A stretch of DNA of 64,000 bases from Acutalibacteraceae bacterium (GTDB lineage Bacteria > Bacillota > Clostridia > Oscillospirales > Acutalibacteraceae). Where the stretch lies: the NCBI GenBank assembly GCA_045642125.1, contig JAZUIE010000012.1, positions 5,151-69,150 of the forward strand. Reading direction: 5' to 3'. A program made the position numbers and the translations under genes. Below, one piece after another: positions 6,643 to 21,144 of this stretch (the first letter of the stretch is position 1; each line of letters opens with the position of its first letter). Below the pieces are notes generated by a model. That model saw only the letters and a program-made list of their open reading frames with translations. It was not told where the DNA came from and did no database searches.

Positions 6643-7977
6643 TTAGGTTTCTCCCGTTAAATTTTTGATAATATCGTTGACGAGTTCTTTTTGATAAGGC
6701 TTATCCGCCAAGAACTTTTCAACCTGATTTACATTATATAAAACGGTCGAATGGTCTTTGCCGAAGCTTTCGCCTATTGCCTTATAGGAAAGGTCGGTCG
6801 TTTCTCTCGATATGTACATAGCAACCTGACGGGCGAGAACCAAAGACTGCGTACGGCGGTTAGATAAAATGTCACTCTCGGAAACATTGTAGGTTCTCGC
6901 AACCTCTTCTATAATCTTTTCAATTTTAATAGGCTCGGGCTGCATATCGTTTATAACGTCTTTTATAAAGCCTTGTACAATAGAAATATTAGGCACCTTG
7001 TTTTGTATGTTTACATACGCCTTAAGCTTCTTTATAACGCCCTCAATTTGACGGGTGTTTGCTTTTATGTGTTCGGCAATGTAATATACTATATTTTCTT
7101 CTAAATCAAAGCCGCTTTCGTTTGCCTTTCTTCTTATGATACCGACTCTCGTTTCAAAGTCGGGCGGGGTAATGTCGGCAAACAAGCCACTCGCAAAACG
7201 GGAACGGATACGGTCGTCAAGAGTTTTTATTTCCTTAAGCGGACGGTCGAGCGTTACAACTATCTGCTTGTTGTTTTGGTAAAGAGTATTAAAGGTATTA
7301 AAGAACTCTTCCTGTGTTTGCTCTTTTCCGGCTATGAAGTGAATATCGTCAACAAGCAAAACATCAACGCCCCTGAACTTTGTCCTGAAGTCGTCTATCG
7401 TGCCTAAACCTAACTTACCCTCTTGAATTGCCTGAATAAGACGGTTTGTAAAGTCTTCGCCTCTCGTGTACTCGATTTTCTTGCCGGGAAATTTGTTTTT
7501 TATGTGGTTTTTAATGGCAAGCAAAAGGTGCGTCTTGCCGACACCGGACGGGCCGTAAATAATAAGGGGGTTGTAATTTATAAGTCCGGGGTTTTCCGCA
7601 ACGGCAAAGGCGGCGGCTTGGGCAAACTTGTTAGAAGAGCCGACAACGAAATTGTTAAAGGTGAAGAAATCTTCAAAGGAAAGACCTTCACTGTGTTCTT
7701 CGGCTTTTCTTATCTTGTCTTCGTCACTTTCGTATATAACCTTAGGCGTAAGGTCAATGCCCATAATCGTTTTAATGGAAGCCGTTAAAAGCCCCATATA
7801 GTTTTGCTCTATAACGCCGCAGATGTAATCGTTGTTGTGCGACATAACAAAATTGCCGTCTTCTATGTAGAGAGGTTTAAGACCGCTGAAAAAGCAGTCA
7901 AAAGCAACGGTAGAAATAGTTTTTTTACATTCTTCGCAAATTGCTTCCCAAATATCAAACATAGAATCAGAAGCCAT
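6643..7977 (-). CDS. dnaA: Chromosomal replication initiator protein DnaA
   Basis: AAA+ motifs GPSGVGKTHLL and LLVDDIHFIAGKEQTQEEFFNTFN, plus the C-terminal DNA-binding signature LSYKAIGESFGKDHSTVLYNVNQV. The track ORF runs to 8052. I prefer the ATG at 7975-7977 (MASDSMFDIWEAI...) because the first 25 codons are a translation of pure AT-rich DNA. Confidence 0.93.
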   Translation of the reverse strand: MASDSMFDIWEAICEECKKTISTVAFDCFFSGLKPLYIEDGNFVMSHNNDYICGVIEQNYMGLLTASIKTIMGIDLTPKVIYESDEDKIRKAEEHSEGLSFEDFFTFNNFVVGSSNKFAQAAAFAVAENPGLINYNPLIIYGPSGVGKTHLLLAIKNHIKNKFPGKKIEYTRGEDFTNRLIQAIQEGKLGLGTIDDFRTKFRGVDVLLVDDIHFIAGKEQTQEEFFNTFNTLYQNNKQIVVTLDRPLKEIKTLDDRIRSRFASGLFADITPPDFETRVGIIRRKANESGFDLEENIVYYIAEHIKANTRQIEGVIKKLKAYVNIQNKVPNISIVQGFIKDVINDMQPEPIKIEKIIEEVARTYNVSESDILSNRRTQSLVLARQVAMYISRETTDLSYKAIGESFGKDHSTVLYNVNQVEKFLADKPYQKELVNDIIKNLTGET

Positions 7978-8120
7978 TTTTACCACCCCTATAAATAATA
8001 TTATATATGATAATATATTATATATATATATAAATATATAATAGTATAACATAATATAATATAGTTTTCAACATTTATTTGCGTTTTTGTTGACAAAACC
8101 GCACGGATAAAAGATTTTTG
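7978..8120. other. Putative oriC segment: AT-rich unwinding-element candidate (about 7990-8065) plus DnaA-box-like 9-mer
   Basis: About 75 nt of almost pure A/T (ataaataatattatatatgataatatattatatatatatataaatatata...) lie directly upstream of dnaA. TGTTGATAA (1 mismatch to TGTGGATAA) sits at 8119-8127. No cluster of perfect boxes was seen. Confidence 0.4.
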
Positions 8121-8149
8121 TTGATAAATATGAAAAAATGTGGTATTAT
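8121..8149 (+). promoter_or_regulatory. Sigma-A-type promoter driving the tRNA-Pro transcription unit
   Basis: -35 TTGATA (8121-8126), 17-nt spacer, extended -10 TGgTATTAT (8141-8149). The only downstream terminator lies after tRNA-Pro. Confidence 0.5.
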
Positions 8150-8211
8150 TATCGGGCGTTCAAAAAAAGAGAACAAAACAAACAGTATTGATATAAAAAA
8201 ATTTAATATTT

Positions 8212-8362
8212 CGAGGTGTAGCGCAGCAGGACACGCGCCAGTTTTGGGTGAGAAATGCGAGTGCGTCCTGCGGACGATTAAACGAGCAGTTCGAAGCGCT
8301 GCGGTCGATAGGTGCGCCACGCTCCAAGTGAGCGCAACATCGGGCACCGCAAGAGGGTTGCC
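8212..8362 (+). ncRNA. Unclassified structured element, copy A: truncated tRNA-Pro-like 5' head (8212-8248) fused to a conserved ~115-nt domain (8249-8362)
   Basis: The head repeats CGAGGTGTAGCGCAG and GCGCCAGTTTTGGG of the tRNA-Pro gene at 8420. The domain aligns without gaps to 18321-18434. Helices: 8252-8258/8286-8292, 8264-8268/8272-8276, and a long irregular hairpin 8301-8350. Strand was assigned from the promoter/terminator context. All pairs are Watson-Crick, so pairing alone does not orient it. Confidence 0.55.
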
Positions 8363-8419
8363 AAAACAGGCTGAAAAAAAACATAAACAAATTTTATTAT
8401 ACTTACAATTTAACAATTT

Positions 8420-8495
8420 CGAGGTGTAGCGCAGTTGGTAGCGCGCCAGTTTTGGGAACTGGATGCCGCAGGTTCGAGCCCTGTCACCTCGACCA
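8420..8495 (+). tRNA. tRNA-Pro (anticodon UGG)
   Basis: Cloverleaf read by eye: acceptor CGAGGTG/CACCTCG, D arm GCGC-AGTTGGTA-GCGC, anticodon arm CCAGT-TTTGGGA-ACTGG, T arm GCAGG-TTCGAGC-CCTGT, encoded CCA. Confidence 0.93.
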
Positions 8496-17819: not shown

Positions 17820-17988
17820 TAGACATAATCTCCTTTCTTCTTGAGAAAAGTTTTTAGGGTTCAACTTTCAGCTGATAAATTGAAACCTTCGTCCAAAAGT
17901 CTTTCCCAACAAAGACAAAGGTCGAAACTTCTCCCAAAAAATTACTTAATAAAGGCAATAAAAACACTACCGCATATTAAGTTAATTA

Positions 17989-18017
17989 ATTATACCACCG
18001 TGTAATATAAATTGCAA
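17989..18017 (-). promoter_or_regulatory. Strong sigma-A-type promoter for the small-protein operon
   Basis: On the minus strand: TTGCAA (18012-18017), 17-nt spacer, extended -10 TGgTATAAT (-10 hexamer at 17989-17994). This implies a 5' UTR of about 160 nt. Confidence 0.6.
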
Positions 18018-18060
18018 CAAAAAAATGCAAATTCGAGCAATTTTCAAAAAGATTTTTAGG

Positions 18061-18089
18061 TTGACTTTTTTGAGTCTTTGTGATAAAAT
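18061..18089 (+). promoter_or_regulatory. Sigma-A-type promoter of the tRNA-Ser operon
   Basis: -35 TTGACT (18061-18066), 17-nt spacer, extended -10 TGaTAAAAT (18081-18089). Confidence 0.6.
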
Positions 18090-18104
18090 ATTTTGGTCAC
18101 ATAC

Positions 18105-18191
18105 GGAGAGGTATCGAAGTGGTCATAACGAGGCGGTCTTGAAAACCGTTTGGGGCAACCCACAAGGGTTCGAATCCCTTCCTCTCCGCCA
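18105..18191 (+). tRNA. tRNA-Ser (anticodon UGA)
   Basis: Acceptor GGAGAGG/CCTCTCC, anticodon arm GCGGT-CTTGAAA-ACCGT, long variable arm, T arm AAGGG-TTCGAAT-CCCTT, encoded CCA. Confidence 0.92.
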
Positions 18192-18294
18192 TTTTTAAGA
18201 AAACTTTCCGCTTTTTTTGAACACAAAACGAAAAAAACGAGAAAGTTACACATAGACGACAATTTAATACCAAAGATATTTATGTTATCAATAC

Positions 18295-18434
18295 GGAGTA
18301 GTACAGGGGCTGGTGACGGGCTACGGTTTCGAGTGCGTCCGGTGGACGAAGAAACGAGAAACGGTAGGCGCAGCGGTCGATAGGTGCGCCACGCTCCAAG
18401 TGAGCGCAACATCGGGTACCGCAAGAGGGCAGCC
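18295..18434 (+). ncRNA. Unclassified structured element, copy B: truncated tRNA-Ser-like 5' head (18295-18320) fused to the conserved domain (18321-18434)
   Basis: The head shares GGAGTAGTAC and GCTGGTGACG with tRNA-Ser(GCU) at 18516. The 37-nt leader 18258-18294 is 34/37 identical to 18479-18515. Domain helices: 18321-18330/18358-18367, 18336-18340/18344-18348, and hairpin 18373-18422. Confidence 0.55.
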
Positions 18435-18515
18435 GAGGAACGTATATAAAACACAAAAAAGTTAAAGCAGAATATAAAGACAATTTAATACTAAAGATAT
18501 TTTAGTTATCAATAC

Positions 18516-18606
18516 GGAGTAGTACTCAAGCTGGTGACGAGGCACCCCTGCTAAGGGTGTAGGTCGGGTAACCGATGCGAGAGTTCGAATCTCTCCTACT
18601 CCGCCA
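18516..18606 (+). tRNA. tRNA-Ser (anticodon GCU)
   Basis: Acceptor GGAGTAG/CTACTCC, anticodon arm ACCCC-TGCTAAG-GGGTG, long variable arm, T arm GAGAG-TTCGAAT-CTCTC, encoded CCA. Confidence 0.92.
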
Positions 18607-18610
18607 AAAA

Positions 18611-18660
18611 AGAAATCGCTTTTGTCTACCAAGGCAAAGGCGATTTCTTTACGCATTTTA
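18611..18660 (+). terminator. Terminator-like hairpin after tRNA-Ser(GCU)
   Basis: AGAAATCGCTTTTG ... CAAAGGCGATTTCT (14 bp including one G-U) is followed by TTACGCATTTT. The U-run is weak. Confidence 0.45.
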
Positions 18661-19024
18661 GGGCAAAATACAGGCAAAATCGCATAAAATAAGGCAAAAC
18701 GGGCTTCGAGACGGTCATCACGGCTATCCCGGAGCCCGTTTTTTCGTTTCCGGCACCGAAAACCAGCCGAAAACGCTGGTGTACTTTTTCGATTTCTTTA
18801 CGCTGCAAAGAAATTCTGCTCTGAATAGGCGTAGGGATTTGAACTAAAAAAGTGATGAAAAAATTGGCTAAATCACGAAATCGTTACTTCCACCTCTTGA
18901 AAATCGACAGAATTCATGTTATTCTATTTGTGACTTTTTATACCTACTGATAAGAGGGATTTGAGTGAGACAAGAAAATCGCCAGAAAATATCGCAACAC
19001 ATTGGAAAAGAACGGCGTGCATAG

Positions 19025-19231: not shown

Positions 19232-19786
19232 ATGGGCGAATACATAAAAAAGAAAAAAGAAATGAATTTTAGCAACGTCGGTGCGCTTCAGCCCGTCGTA
19301 AATGTGGTGAACGAAGCAGCCGCAGCATTGAACGACAAGACAAGAACGATAAGAGAAAGCGCGATCCCCGAAGTTCTCGCTGGAGCATTGGGCGCTGGTA
19401 TAGGTGGTGTCGTATCATTTGCGGCGCTTTATGGCCTCGGAACGGTCGTCGGATTGAGCGCAGCAGGTATAACGTCCGGCCTTGCTACTGCAGGCGCGAT
19501 TGTGGGAGGCGGAATGGTGGCCGGAGTGTTTGTGCTGGCGGCGCCGGTAGCAATTTTGGCAGCCGGAGGCGTAGGATTAGCATCACATCTCAAAAACAAG
19601 CAGCTAAAGCAAGAAAAAGAGCGCTTATATAAAGAGGTGTTGAAAAAGCACGAGGCCATCATCAAAGCATTGAAAGACGAAGCAGACGCCAGCAAGGAAC
19701 GCATCGATTATTTGCAGAGCTTGAACATTTTGCTAACACAGGCAATTAAAGACCTGCAACATGACCTTGGTGTAACTGCAGCATGA
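19232..19786 (+). CDS. Glycine-zipper membrane protein with C-terminal coiled coil (uncharacterised)
   Basis: 184-aa ORF with RBS AAGGA 11 nt upstream. The Gly/Ala-rich hydrophobic core is VLAGALGAGIGGVVSFAALYGLGTVVGLSAAGITSGLATAGAIVGGGMVAGVFVLAAPVAILAAGGVGLA, followed by a charged helical tail. Its stop overlaps the next start (ATGA). Confidence 0.6.
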   Translation: MGEYIKKKKEMNFSNVGALQPVVNVVNEAAAALNDKTRTIRESAIPEVLAGALGAGIGGVVSFAALYGLGTVVGLSAAGITSGLATAGAIVGGGMVAGVFVLAAPVAILAAGGVGLASHLKNKQLKQEKERLYKEVLKKHEAIIKALKDEADASKERIDYLQSLNILLTQAIKDLQHDLGVTAA

Positions 19787-21144
19787 AAAAATACAGCTAT
19801 TCGGAAAAGGAACAAGACATAAACACCGTTCTAAGCCGTCAGCAAAAGCAGCTTGACTCGGTGATTATACCGGCTGTGGATGAGGAAAAGATTAGCGAAA
19901 GTGAGGCAATCCTTCAATCATTAGGATATTCCCTGCCTGAAAAGCGAGCCACAGAAATCGTCCGGGAAAAGAAGGAAATCATCGTCCCTTCCTGGGAACA
20001 GCTATTGAGCACAGCAAAAGACGACGTTGGCGACGGTCATGCATTAACCGAGCTATTCACAGACGACGAGATTAGAGACAACGCGCTATACATAAGAACG
20101 CTGGCAAGCGATTACAACGCATTACACCGCCTCGATTTGATCGATTATTCGATATGCGCCATCGCCGGAATATTGTCCGGCGCTCTCGACATCTTATTGG
20201 TCGGAATACCAAAGGCCACTCCAGACGGACTAAAAGCGGGAACGTTATCCAACTACATCCGCGACCAATTCAACAAAAAATTCTCGAAGGATGAAATGGA
20301 GAAACTCGCCAACTCCAAGGAAAGCAAAGTCCCATTTGATGCGCAGGACAACCGGCATACAACAGAGCACGTAGAAGGACTTTCGGCATATTACCATAGA
20401 ATGCTGTCGCTCGGCCACGATCCGCTCCTGGGCTTTGTCGTCGGAGTTTTCGACATCATAACCGGCAGAATGACCACAATAGATAAGACAGGAAAGTTTG
20501 TTTCACAGGTCATGGAGAACTATGCCGACCGCAAAGAAACAAACATTTTCGCAGCGATAGCAAAGCAGTTTATTCATTTCAAATCGGATATCACAACGTC
20601 CATGGGGCTACCAGCGCCACTGATGAGCTTGTTCAATTTGCTCCAGTTCGGCAGCATTGGAGAAGAAGAACAAACCATAGCTGAAATCGTACAGGGCATG
20701 TACTACGAAGGATACGACTTCATCCATTTCTGTTCGACATCGATCCCCGTCCTTTTGACCGAAGTCATTGTGCGCATCAGCTACGCAATAAGGCGGCTAC
20801 GAGAAGGCCACTCAATAAAAGAGTCGATACCGTTCTCGTTAAACAGAGAGAAGCATCCGAAGCTGGCTACGATGCTATTTATAGCACACTCAGCAGCCAC
20901 GGCAATTAACGCTGGCAAGGTTTATTTCACGAAAAACCCGATGGCTATCAATTACCCTCAGTGGGTATCGTTCGCCAAATATTCCTACAAACAATTAAAA
21001 TGGGCGCTGATCGAAAAGCCCATGCTGCGGGACAAATACATCCAAGGATACATGGACGCAGAATTCGCAGACATACTTGAATCAGTCGACGAAACAACAA
21101 AACGCTTTTCGGAGACCTACACATTTATCCTCGCGGAGGAATAA
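19783..21144 (+). CDS. Uncharacterised 453-aa protein with several hydrophobic segments
   Basis: Long ORF translationally coupled to the upstream gene. I recognise no family. Features seen are a hydrophobic stretch DYSICAIAGILSGALDILLVGI and the motif GLSAYYHRMLSLGHDPLLGFVVGVFDIITG. Confidence 0.65.
   Translation: MKKYSYSEKEQDINTVLSRQQKQLDSVIIPAVDEEKISESEAILQSLGYSLPEKRATEIVREKKEIIVPSWEQLLSTAKDDVGDGHALTELFTDDEIRDNALYIRTLASDYNALHRLDLIDYSICAIAGILSGALDILLVGIPKATPDGLKAGTLSNYIRDQFNKKFSKDEMEKLANSKESKVPFDAQDNRHTTEHVEGLSAYYHRMLSLGHDPLLGFVVGVFDIITGRMTTIDKTGKFVSQVMENYADRKETNIFAAIAKQFIHFKSDITTSMGLPAPLMSLFNLLQFGSIGEEEQTIAEIVQGMYYEGYDFIHFCSTSIPVLLTEVIVRISYAIRRLREGHSIKESIPFSLNREKHPKLATMLFIAHSAATAINAGKVYFTKNPMAINYPQWVSFAKYSYKQLKWALIEKPMLRDKYIQGYMDAEFADILESVDETTKRFSETYTFILAEE

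Follow-up and report, generated by a model that had tools for sequence, protein, structure and literature searches.

A covarying RNA module lodged in partial tRNA copies within tRNA transcription units of uncultured Clostridia

In Escherichia coli, the tyrT-tyrV-rttR operon carries three 178-nt repeats, each of which overlaps the last 19 nt of a tRNA-Tyr gene, and a small RNA, RttR, is annotated there. The RNA of these rtT repeats (Rfam entry RF00391) is freed from the primary transcript of the tRNAs, and the repeats themselves favour unequal recombination. A comparable layout was found in a 64,000-nt stretch of DNA (hereafter the window) from an Acutalibacteraceae bacterium (GenBank assembly GCA_045642125.1, contig JAZUIE010000012.1, positions 5,151 to 69,150 of the forward strand), in which a 112-nt module lies within the transcription units of tRNA-Pro(UGG) and tRNA-Ser(GCU). 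Both copies had been pointed out in an earlier note made from the sequence alone, which the present analysis follows up. The two systems have in common tandem units of approximately 180-220 nt in a tRNA operon, each with a fragment of the adjacent tRNA. The likeness is nevertheless an analogy of layout only. The module has no Rfam match, and hence no sequence or structure homology was found. Furthermore, the rtT units lie downstream and carry a tRNA 3' end, whereas those described here lie mostly upstream, carry the leader and 5' part and hold the module inside a tRNA stem-loop. The hosts also belong to different phyla.

A partial tRNA copy near an intact gene is likewise seen with islands and prophages in tRNA genes; such islands are bounded on one side by a displaced tRNA fragment and on the other by a regenerated gene (PMC4383910). 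In the window, too, a tRNA fragment marks the far end of the insert (61 nt at 89% identity at the Ser locus, positions -12 to 37 of tRNA-Pro at the Pro locus), and among relatives junctions in the anticodon loop or T loop and integrases at several loci add to the resemblance. Unlike islands, however, the insert encodes neither an integrase nor cargo, the window units being 208-221 nt long and without a real open reading frame (ORF). Nor is there one tRNA sublocation, as for a single attP: the junction, always at GGG, has no fixed tRNA position but falls at 37 in tRNA-Pro, 31 in tRNA-fMet, about 27 in tRNA-Ser, in the T stem of tRNA-Trp and at guaA. An 'island' of this kind would measure 150-220 nt, with one sequence on several tRNAs and a fold under selection.

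RNAs resembling tRNAs or scaffolded by them, such as bacterial YrlA, mascRNA, the Bacillus cereus tRNA-Other and engineered scaffolds, keep an acceptor/T-arm unit for RNase P or the CCA-adding enzyme. The module is similarly a non-translational RNA built from or embedded in tRNA elements, which likely uses tRNA processing and stability, but only one acceptor strand is present, the T arm is lost in most lineages and no Rfam tRNA-like match was obtained. Introns of the tRNA anticodon loop occur as group I introns in bacteria and at position 37/38 in archaea. The module of the Pro lineage also interrupts this loop, after G37, and is closed by the anticodon stem, whereas the junctions of other lineages lie in the T loop, the D arm or the 3' end of a protein gene; as the interrupted Pro copy lacks the T arm and acceptor 3' strand, no tRNA can be spliced from it. 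A group I intron was rejected, given the 112-nt length, the lack of a group I core and of an Intron_gpI match, and the mere 5-10 nt of anticodon-stem 3' strand that remain. Eukaryotic tRNA-derived short interspersed nuclear elements (SINEs) have a tRNA head, an unrelated body and an A-rich tail. A tRNA-derived head, a conserved body (itself probably tRNA-derived) and A-rich sequence recur here, but in bacteria without RNA polymerase III promoter logic, in copies that are not dispersed, with a head that always matches the adjacent tRNA and with no evidence of retroposition. A T-box riboswitch was also rejected, as there was no Rfam match, no terminator follows the module, and its location is upstream of tRNA genes or in 3' regions.

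The element belongs to the tRNA-operon repeat RNA or tRNA-derived structured RNA kind and is absent from Rfam and from the literature searched. It is read here as a functional, tRNA-derived structured RNA that is co-transcribed with tRNAs, sits in a pseudo-tRNA scaffold and occurs in arrays reshaped by recombination, a reading to which a probability of about one half is assigned.

Chimeric pseudo-tRNA units in the window

The element at the Ser locus is a chimeric pseudo-tRNA gene. It duplicates in tandem a part of the tRNA-Ser(GCU) locus, namely the 5' flank and some 27 nt from the start of the tRNA, and the rest of the copied tRNA has been replaced at GGG by the 112-nt module. A repeat scan returned a 61-nt direct repeat (18258-18318 and 18479-18539, 89% identity, spacing 221) consisting of the leader and the start of tRNA-Ser(GCU), and base-by-base reading of the leader copies (18258-18294 and 18479-18515) gave 3 mismatches in 37 positions. 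The first 10 nt of the tRNA, GGAGTAGTAC, are identical in the head and the intact gene, as is GCTGGTGACG, while four D-stem bases differ (AGGG in place of TCAA). The head retains the acceptor 5' strand and D loop, with the D stem altered on both sides, and ends in the GGG that precedes helix P1 in every family member; allowing for a one-base deletion, its similarity continues as far as position 27 or so of the tRNA. When the 5' flank was aligned locally with the downstream tRNA, positions -25 to 28 of the latter were covered at z = 24 (300 shuffles), far beyond chance. The earlier note's account of this repeat, namely 34 of 37 leader positions identical, an exact first 10 nt, a common D-loop block and differing D-stem bases, was therefore confirmed. 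Its tRNA operon was also recovered, with a promoter-like site where the promoter had been placed (18061-18089) and both tRNA-Ser genes called by ARAGORN and scored by Rfam at 57.6 bits (UGA) and 52.1 bits (GCU). The A-rich spacer, said to be about 80 nt, does measure 81 nt to the tRNA, but the distance from the module to the second leader copy is 44 nt.

The second copy at 8.2 kb, reported earlier as carrying a Pro head, stands as described. Including GGG, it occupies 112 nt (8246-8357) upstream of tRNA-Pro(UGG), and a 44-nt core is identical in the two window copies, which none of 100 shuffles matched. A chance repeat was ruled out by these shuffle tests, for core and head alignment alike, and by the 61-nt repeat. 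The covariance model scored the two copies at 106.8 and 104.1-104.2 bits and, with filters off, found no third in the window. They are identical at 89 of 109 positions overall and at 60 of 62 in the 3' 62 nt, and their P1 strands differ almost completely yet stay complementary. The domain is consequently not 'nearly invariant', as had been stated, and P1, P2, P3 and P5 covary.

Comparison with a relative bears on the age of the Pro head. (L-numbers denote loci or contigs of relatives and metagenomes.) The head in the window and that of the first L013 unit are identical at 37/37 positions, including five D-loop substitutions absent from the real tRNA, whereas the leader (24/40), P5 (22/40) and spacer (33/62) have diverged and DnaA is 77% identical. 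This agrees with the earlier view that the duplications are not brand new. Since the substitutions are common to the window and L013, gene conversion from the tRNA cannot explain them, and the Pro head must be constrained; part of that constraint is due to a closing helix, P0 (see below), in which CCAGUUUUGG (8238-8247) represents the anticodon-stem 5' strand and anticodon loop of the head. As a separate observation, the substituted D loop (8226-8231) holds CAGGAC, the perfect complement of GUCCUG in the P3 5' strand and loop (8265-8270), with 5/6 matches in L013; this could be an alternative pairing or a coincidence.

The RNA family, its fold and its tRNA context

Family copies were gathered from loci upstream of dnaA in relatives and by degenerate-pattern scans of metagenome and IMG/VR contigs, with chance matches of the scans removed by means of the covariance model. 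Approximately 31 module copies were obtained in about 26 contigs of uncultured Clostridia (50-133 bits, covariance model R1), and the core sequence is conserved across species with DnaA 75-82% identical. The module is an uncatalogued RNA family of uncultured gut-type Clostridia (Acutalibacteraceae/Ruminococcaceae-like). A search of the whole window against Rfam 15 at gathering score returned only tRNAs, no Rfam match fell on the module in region 17900-18800 at E <= 10 or in seven related loci at E <= 1, and literature searches yielded no description of the motif. Searches with blastn against phage and plasmid collections gave nothing relevant, a 20-mer scan of a genome collection gave only a chance match in a Binatia metagenome-assembled genome (MAG), a 16-mer scan of viral sequences gave 10 chance matches, and none of the 48 further loci returned by a looser viral pattern was confirmed by the covariance model. 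A phage or plasmid element was rejected, the 'viral' IMG/VR matches being host tRNA loci at prophage borders.

From 5' to 3' the module comprises GGG, P1, P2, an A-rich loop, P3, GCGCN, P4, P5 and the tail AAGAGGG. These form two arms, the first made up of P1, P2 (with tandem G.A) and P3, the second of an invariant P4 and a variable P5, and the arms are joined by conserved purine-rich junction strands. P1 has 9-10 bp in most lineages, including the Ser unit; in one large subgroup (Pro/fMet/Trp) only 3-4 bp remain, together with a conserved internal loop, UGAGGU/AAACGA. P2 is CGAG(Y)/(R)CGAG, with central G.A and A.G in 25/25 copies, and the one-sided A-rich loop has the consensus ANNA(A/C). 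P3 (CGUCC-NNN-GGACG) covaries to CUGCC/GGCAG and CCGCC/GGCGG; the junction is GCGC in 24 of the 25 aligned copies and GCGU in the other; P4 (GCGGU/ACCGC), with a GGN bulge alongside, never varies; and the P5 hairpin has been rebuilt, with compensation, in nearly all species. P1, P2, P3 and P5 each include pairs altered on both sides. For 25 sequences, standard pairs filled 88.6% of pair cells compared with 74.5% in column shuffles, and the covariation score was 0.365 compared with 0.133 when shuffled (0/500) and at most 0.095 with partners slid by 1-3 columns. Judged by these alignments, the fold is strongly supported by covariation and is under selection. The plus strand was assigned on the basis of co-orientation with tRNAs and of the tandem G.A, which on the other strand would be a U.C/C.U mismatch. 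On reading of the alignment, N of the GGN bulge does not track the discriminator base of the adjacent tRNA, and T-box-like sensing of CCA by this bulge was rejected for that reason. Assignments as HDV-like (hepatitis delta virus-like) or as a kink-turn were discarded by eye, the required pairings or bulge geometry being absent.

In the Pro lineage, P0 forms between a linker (CCAAAAC, CCAAAGC or ACAAAGC) and two parts of the head, the 5' strand of the anticodon stem and the anticodon loop. As P0 closes the module, a three-way junction results inside the anticodon arm of the truncated tRNA-Pro copy. Values of z for this helix were -4.1 in the window Pro unit (0/200 shuffles), -4.7 in L013a, -3.6 in L038 and -2.3 in L044; with L030 included, the window Pro unit, L013 and L038 range between -3 and -4.7.

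Nearly every copy lies within a partial duplicate of the adjacent tRNA, the 5' part in the case of Pro, Ser and fMet and the 3' part in the case of Trp. The fragment always comes from the adjacent tRNA (z = 17-33 for Pro and Ser heads), and the module is on the strand of that tRNA in 16/16 loci with a visible tRNA. The Pro architecture was found at tRNA-Pro(UGG) in at least 12 contigs (the window, L012, L013, L032, L036, L038, L039/40 and L043-L049, probably also L017 and L029). Its order is promoter, leader, tRNA-Pro 1-37, module, 7-nt linker, anticodon-stem 3' remains, A-rich spacer, leader and intact tRNA-Pro. The anticodon loop is interrupted exactly after G37, and 5-10 nt of the anticodon-stem 3' strand are left after the module, the remains beyond the linker decaying freely. 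In L024, positions 1-31 of an initiator-type tRNA, presumably tRNA-fMet, are followed by the module with a small hairpin and then by CCCGA, the anticodon-stem 3' strand. In the Trp lineage (L026, L042, L050) tRNA-Trp and its terminator come first and the module after them, and in L050 the module is followed by a copy (44 identities, z = 27.6) of the tRNA-Trp sequence from the 3' part of the T loop, through the 3' strands of the T stem and acceptor, CCA and the trailer, to the terminator. The L030 module is located 59 nt 3' of tRNA-Leu(CAA), and L034 has the same P1 type and no visible tRNA on its short contig. A diverged tRNA-Leu T-arm copy seen by eye before the L030 module was dropped, as it was not significant in a shuffle test. 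In L029 the module follows gltX, and in L021 it stands directly after the guaA stop codon, which forms part of P1, without a tRNA piece.

Against this survey, the cognate-tRNA association put forward in the earlier note holds in that the fragment is always that of the neighbour and recurs (Pro in at least 12 contigs, fMet in L024), but it fails for L021. A 5' fragment precedes the Pro, Ser and fMet copies, as expected from the note, but not those of the Trp lineage, in which the module is downstream and the duplicated part is the 3' end with the terminator (L050). That the element is not a passive repeat is in keeping with its ~31 copies, covarying fold and co-orientation. L021 is in part the kind of copy, away from a tRNA gene, that the note itself had named as telling against a specific association. 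Two features had been overlooked, namely the probable tRNA origin of the domain and the arrays of variable size.

As to that origin, the tRNA-Trp of L026, L042 and L050 reads ...GAGC A GCGGU CUCCAAA ACCGC GUGCC GAGGG UUCGAAU..., with which the module aligns as GCGC N GCGGU C[P5]GGN ACCGC AA GAGGG, so that GCAGCGGUC, ACCGC and GAGGG occur within it in tRNA-Trp order. The P5 apex is G-CYYCAA in 9/19 lineages and GCUCCAA in the window copies (18399-18405 and 8327-8333), and the L050 module continues colinearly into the rest of tRNA-Trp. From this alignment, P4-P5 is probably, though not provenly, a lengthened tRNA-Trp anticodon arm, and the tail the T-stem 5' strand of the same tRNA. The apex GCUCCAA equals the tRNA-Trp anticodon loop shifted by one base and is complementary to the anticodon loop of tRNA-Pro(UGG), UUUGGG, a complementarity that arises as a side effect of the Trp-type loop CUCCAA.

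Arrays at the same locus in relatives consist of 1-2 full units with 5'-truncated remnants, and copy number varies; L013, L044, L046 and L049 have two units each. In L045 (5099-5326, minus strand) two modules abut, the tail AAGAGGG of the first supplying the GGG before the second P1, and the second tail is AAGGGGG. A solitary AACCGCAAGAGGGTTACCAAAAC, corresponding to the P4 3' strand, tail and linker, is found some 50 nt before tRNA-Pro or the first head in L065 (1770-1795), L012 (~2780-2800) and L032 (~270-290), all on the minus strand, and has the same 5' boundary in the three species. A search of the Pro locus for a clean empty site gave none: in relatives, either dnaA has no tRNA-Pro beside it or a remnant persists (L065). 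These tRNA loci are integration hot spots. Tyrosine integrases occur only outside the units, next to tRNA-Pro (L044, L046) or next to the pseudo-tRNA-Trp (L042), and in five contigs (L043, L044, L047, L039 and L049) foreign DNA with a tRNA-Pro of its own interrupts an additional tRNA-Pro copy after GGGAGCA, which looks like a prophage disrupting the host tRNA-Pro and supplying a substitute. L044 (6720-6990), for example, shows a cut tRNA-Pro, ~210 nt of foreign DNA, a different complete tRNA-Pro and two tyrosine integrase genes.

Mechanism and competing explanations

The module lies within a tRNA transcription unit, with a promoter-like site upstream of each unit in the window. In consensus scans, neither unit showed an internal terminator and the Ser unit showed no internal promoter; the Pro-unit spacer has a weak promoter-like match (9/12, 8371-8400). 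The module would be co-transcribed with the tRNAs, and RNase P together with 3'-end processing of the flanking tRNAs would cut its RNA free. A compact, GC-rich fold closed by tRNA-derived stems would be expected to give a stable small RNA, which may act in trans; most likely it would mimic a tRNA in part and in this way bind a protein. The neighbouring protein-coding genes are unrelated and have housekeeping roles, and so there is no dedicated partner in cis. Judging by the arrays, the duplicated tRNA segments may act as recombination substrates through which arrays expand, contract and homogenise, a step with a precedent, by analogy, in E. coli tyrT-tyrV-rttR.

A number of points weigh against this functional reading. 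Co-transcription, processing and stability are inferences, and the Ser-type unit was found in this window only. The closing helix of that unit, in which CAGCC of the spacer (18430-18434) could pair with GGCUG (18308-18312), is not significant (z = -0.8). Since parts of P3, P4 and the tail were preset in the patterns used for retrieval, invariance there is in part a matter of ascertainment. Wobble cells in the well-supported helices (6 G-U and 7 A-C) are uninformative on strand, and strand assignment from them was rejected. A simple alignment test of tRNA-Trp ancestry gave a z of only ~3. Finally, the constant GGG at both ends, the abutting L045 modules and the locations at classic integration sites (anticodon loop, T loop and guaA 3' end) also fit a mobile element.

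Such an element would be a protein-less, non-autonomous insertion (akin to miniature inverted-repeat transposable elements, kin of IS200/IS605-type hairpins, or a tRNA-derived retro-copy) placed 3' of GGG in tRNA stem-loops, with hairpins used for mobilisation; survival only of those insertions that left or created an intact tRNA copy would explain the partial duplication. It would account for the junction at GGG and the GGG in which the module itself ends, although a GGG 5' of P1 and at the tail end in all copies may equally belong to a functional junction. The abutment of the L045 modules with a GGG in common, fusions with four or five different tRNAs and the guaA 3' end, a B-I-B unit structure as after Campbell-type insertion, variable copy number and the near-identity of the 3' 62 nt in window copies 10 kb apart would also follow. 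However, only two copies are present in 64 kb, and a P1 that is wholly different but compensated, together with a P5 rebuilt with compensation, indicates long purifying selection on the fold. Every copy shares the orientation of the tRNAs, none adjoins a transposase, TnpB/IscB or reverse transcriptase, the 'empty' L065 site keeps a 3' remnant, and phage and plasmid collections gave no matches. Mobile insertion is on balance considered unlikely. With regard to an IS200/IS605-type miniature element or omega RNA in particular, the two copies per 64 kb have unrelated P1 helices, no TnpA, TnpB or IscB adjoins them, and co-orientation is 16/16. Guide RNAs (IscB/TnpB omega RNA, bridge RNA and the homing guide of CRISPR-associated transposons) were likewise rejected, there being no nuclease or transposase nearby and a misfit in scaffold size and to Rfam, and the tRNA-like part being a sense copy of the neighbour instead of an unrelated flank. 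A bolder proposal, for which the odds are distinctly low, is a protein-less, tRNA-Trp-derived analogue of SINEs that uses recombination or template switching at a GGG to copy itself into tRNA genes and, occasionally, into mRNA genes at their 3' ends, yielding chimeric pseudo-tRNAs and a tRNA-preserving partial duplication, and that may self-cleave there into tRNA 5' fragments.

The units could alternatively be integration scars, formed when an element carrying a tRNA 5' part recombined, displaced the host 5' fragment and lost all but its att-proximal end, the module. The island layout mentioned at the outset, the tyrosine integrases and the cut tRNA-Pro copies are all in line with this, as are junctions in the anticodon loop (Pro, fMet) and T loop (Trp), which Williams is said to have described in 2002 as the classic crossover sublocations. 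One attP, on the other hand, cannot join the same 112 nt to different tRNAs at different positions with zero spacing, the unit has neither an integrase nor room for one, and the fold covaries, which att arms do not need. In L050 the duplicated Trp segment reaches past a normal att core into the trailer and terminator, and for Pro and Ser the displaced piece is the 5' part, which is unusual for tRNA-gene islands. A scar is accordingly held to be very unlikely. Much the same must be said of a cis-regulatory leader, in which the module would sense a ligand, protein or tRNA while the head competed with the real 5' half for the tRNA 3' half, or tuned processing or read-through. Although the module is upstream of the tRNA on the same transcript in the Pro, Ser and fMet lineages, the head keeps its acceptor 5' strand and D arm, the junction fold with its conserved strands is typical of aptamers, and the CCA-containing Pro linker pairs with the UGG anticodon of the head in the manner of a specifier-anticodon contact, no terminator or sequestering helix follows the module. 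Furthermore, in the Trp and Leu lineages it is downstream of the tRNA and its terminator, it follows guaA in L021 and gltX in L029, the T-box family gave no match and the bulge base is independent of the discriminator base. Least credence of all is given to a new self-cleaving ribozyme, with cleavage at the tail or the GGG/P1 junction and release of a tRNA 5' fragment and unit-length RNAs. A compact fold of ~110 nt, invariant junction nucleotides, tandem units, a constant junction and surroundings rich in prophage integrases would suit it, but Rfam at E <= 10 gave no match to hammerhead, twister, twister-sister, pistol, hatchet, HDV-like or other ribozymes, neither a nested double pseudoknot nor a known catalytic core was seen by eye, and nothing in the sequence data requires cleavage.

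Features, neighbourhood and significance

The features of both units are listed in Table 1.

Table 1. Positions in the window of the features of the Pro and Ser units
Feature	Position	Strand	Remark
Promoter-like site of tRNA-Pro unit (TTGATA, 17 nt, TATTAT)	8121-8149	+	
Pro pseudo-tRNA head	8212-8248	+	tRNA-Pro(UGG) positions 1-37, 5 D-loop substitutions
Sister module copy	8249-8357	+	P1 through tail AAGAGGG
3' strand of closing helix P0, CCAAAACAGG	8361-8370	+	pairs with CCAGUUUUGG
tRNA-Pro(UGG)	8420-8495	+	intact; ARAGORN, Rfam
Promoter-like site of Ser tRNA operon (TTGACT-17-TAAAAT, TG-extended)	18061-18089	+	consensus match only
tRNA-Ser(UGA), first gene of operon	18105-18191	+	intact; ARAGORN, Rfam
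Copy of 37-nt tRNA-Ser(GCU) leader	18258-18294	+	34/37 identical to 18479-18515
Ser pseudo-tRNA head	18295-18320	+	tRNA-Ser(GCU) positions 1 to ~27
Module arm 1, Ser copy	18321-18367	+	P1, P2, A-rich internal loop, P3
P1, Ser copy, CUACGGUUU/AAACGGUAG	18321-18329 with 18359-18367	+	one G-G mismatch
P2, Ser copy, CGAGU/ACGAG	18330-18335 with 18354-18358	+	tandem G.A
P3 hairpin, Ser copy, CGUCC-GGU-GGACG	18336-18348	+	
A-rich internal loop, Ser copy	18349-18353	+	
Junction strand GCGCA, Ser copy	18368-18372	+	
Module arm 2, Ser copy	18373-18422	+	P4 GCGGU/ACCGC and P5
P5, Ser copy	18378-18414	+	apical loop GCUCCAA
GGU bulge, Ser copy	18415-18417	+	
3' tail AAGAGGG, Ser copy	18423-18429	+	conserved
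A-rich spacer of Ser unit	18430-18478	+	
Leader of intact tRNA-Ser(GCU)	18479-18515	+	second copy of repeat
tRNA-Ser(GCU)	18516-18606	+	intact; ARAGORN, Rfam
Imperfect hairpin 3' of Ser operon	18612-18650	+	no U run; not called by terminator scan

Upstream of the Ser unit, a 13-nt repeat, AA(A/G)AAACGAGAAA (18232-18244 and 18349-18361), makes the spacer resemble the P2/P1 3' strand of the module, and may be the remnant of an older module copy or chance in A-rich DNA. Mechanical ORFs run antisense over the units and tRNAs (8075-8416, minus strand, 113 aa; 18056-18454, minus strand, 132 aa); they are almost certainly not genes but carry a risk of miscalling in annotations. Beyond the Ser operon, an overlapping gene pair (19232-21144) encodes proteins of 184 and 453 aa without a Pfam domain, of which the longer has over 2,600 homologues (E <= 1e-20) among MAGs of Clostridia and Bacilli, with a 184-192-aa partner kept. 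Concerning the Ser locus in relatives, the contig of the closest strain starts after tRNA-Ser(GCU) and more distant relatives have no tRNA there. That contig start (L123, 1-40, 97%-identical strain), exactly 3' of tRNA-Ser(GCU), looks like an assembly break at a repeat-containing tRNA operon, which suggests that such units are often lost from short-read assemblies.

At the Pro locus, the gene order dnaA-dnaN-S4-like-recF-remA-gyrB is conserved in relatives, from which it follows that the Pro unit adjoins a probable replication origin and the dnaA promoter. The window DnaA (6643-8052, minus strand) is 100% identical to a MAG protein at NCBI, and its closest named relatives are MAGs of Clostridia, Ruminococcaceae and Acutalibacteraceae. 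An extremely AT-rich, repeat-like stretch (7990-8120) separates the tRNA-Pro promoter from the dnaA start (8052, minus strand). In L052-L056 (500-2100), where dnaA is flanked by tRNA-His, the upstream region has 1-3 strain-variable genes of 86-90 aa without a Pfam match, with or without a DUF6883 gene.

If the element is indeed a functional tRNA-derived RNA, it would represent an RNA family that is strongly structured, uncatalogued and expressed from the promoters of tRNA genes in abundant but uncultured Clostridia of the gut type. It would also have taken an unusual path, in which a tRNA, probably tRNA-Trp, was remodelled into a new fold and then lodged inside truncated copies of other tRNAs. 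The family would offer a case for studying the birth of non-coding RNAs from tRNA genes, the tolerance and reshuffling of inserts by tRNA operons, and the ligand of a fold of ~110 nt, and its GGG junction and cognate fragments make the choice between a functional RNA and a protein-less mobile element directly testable.

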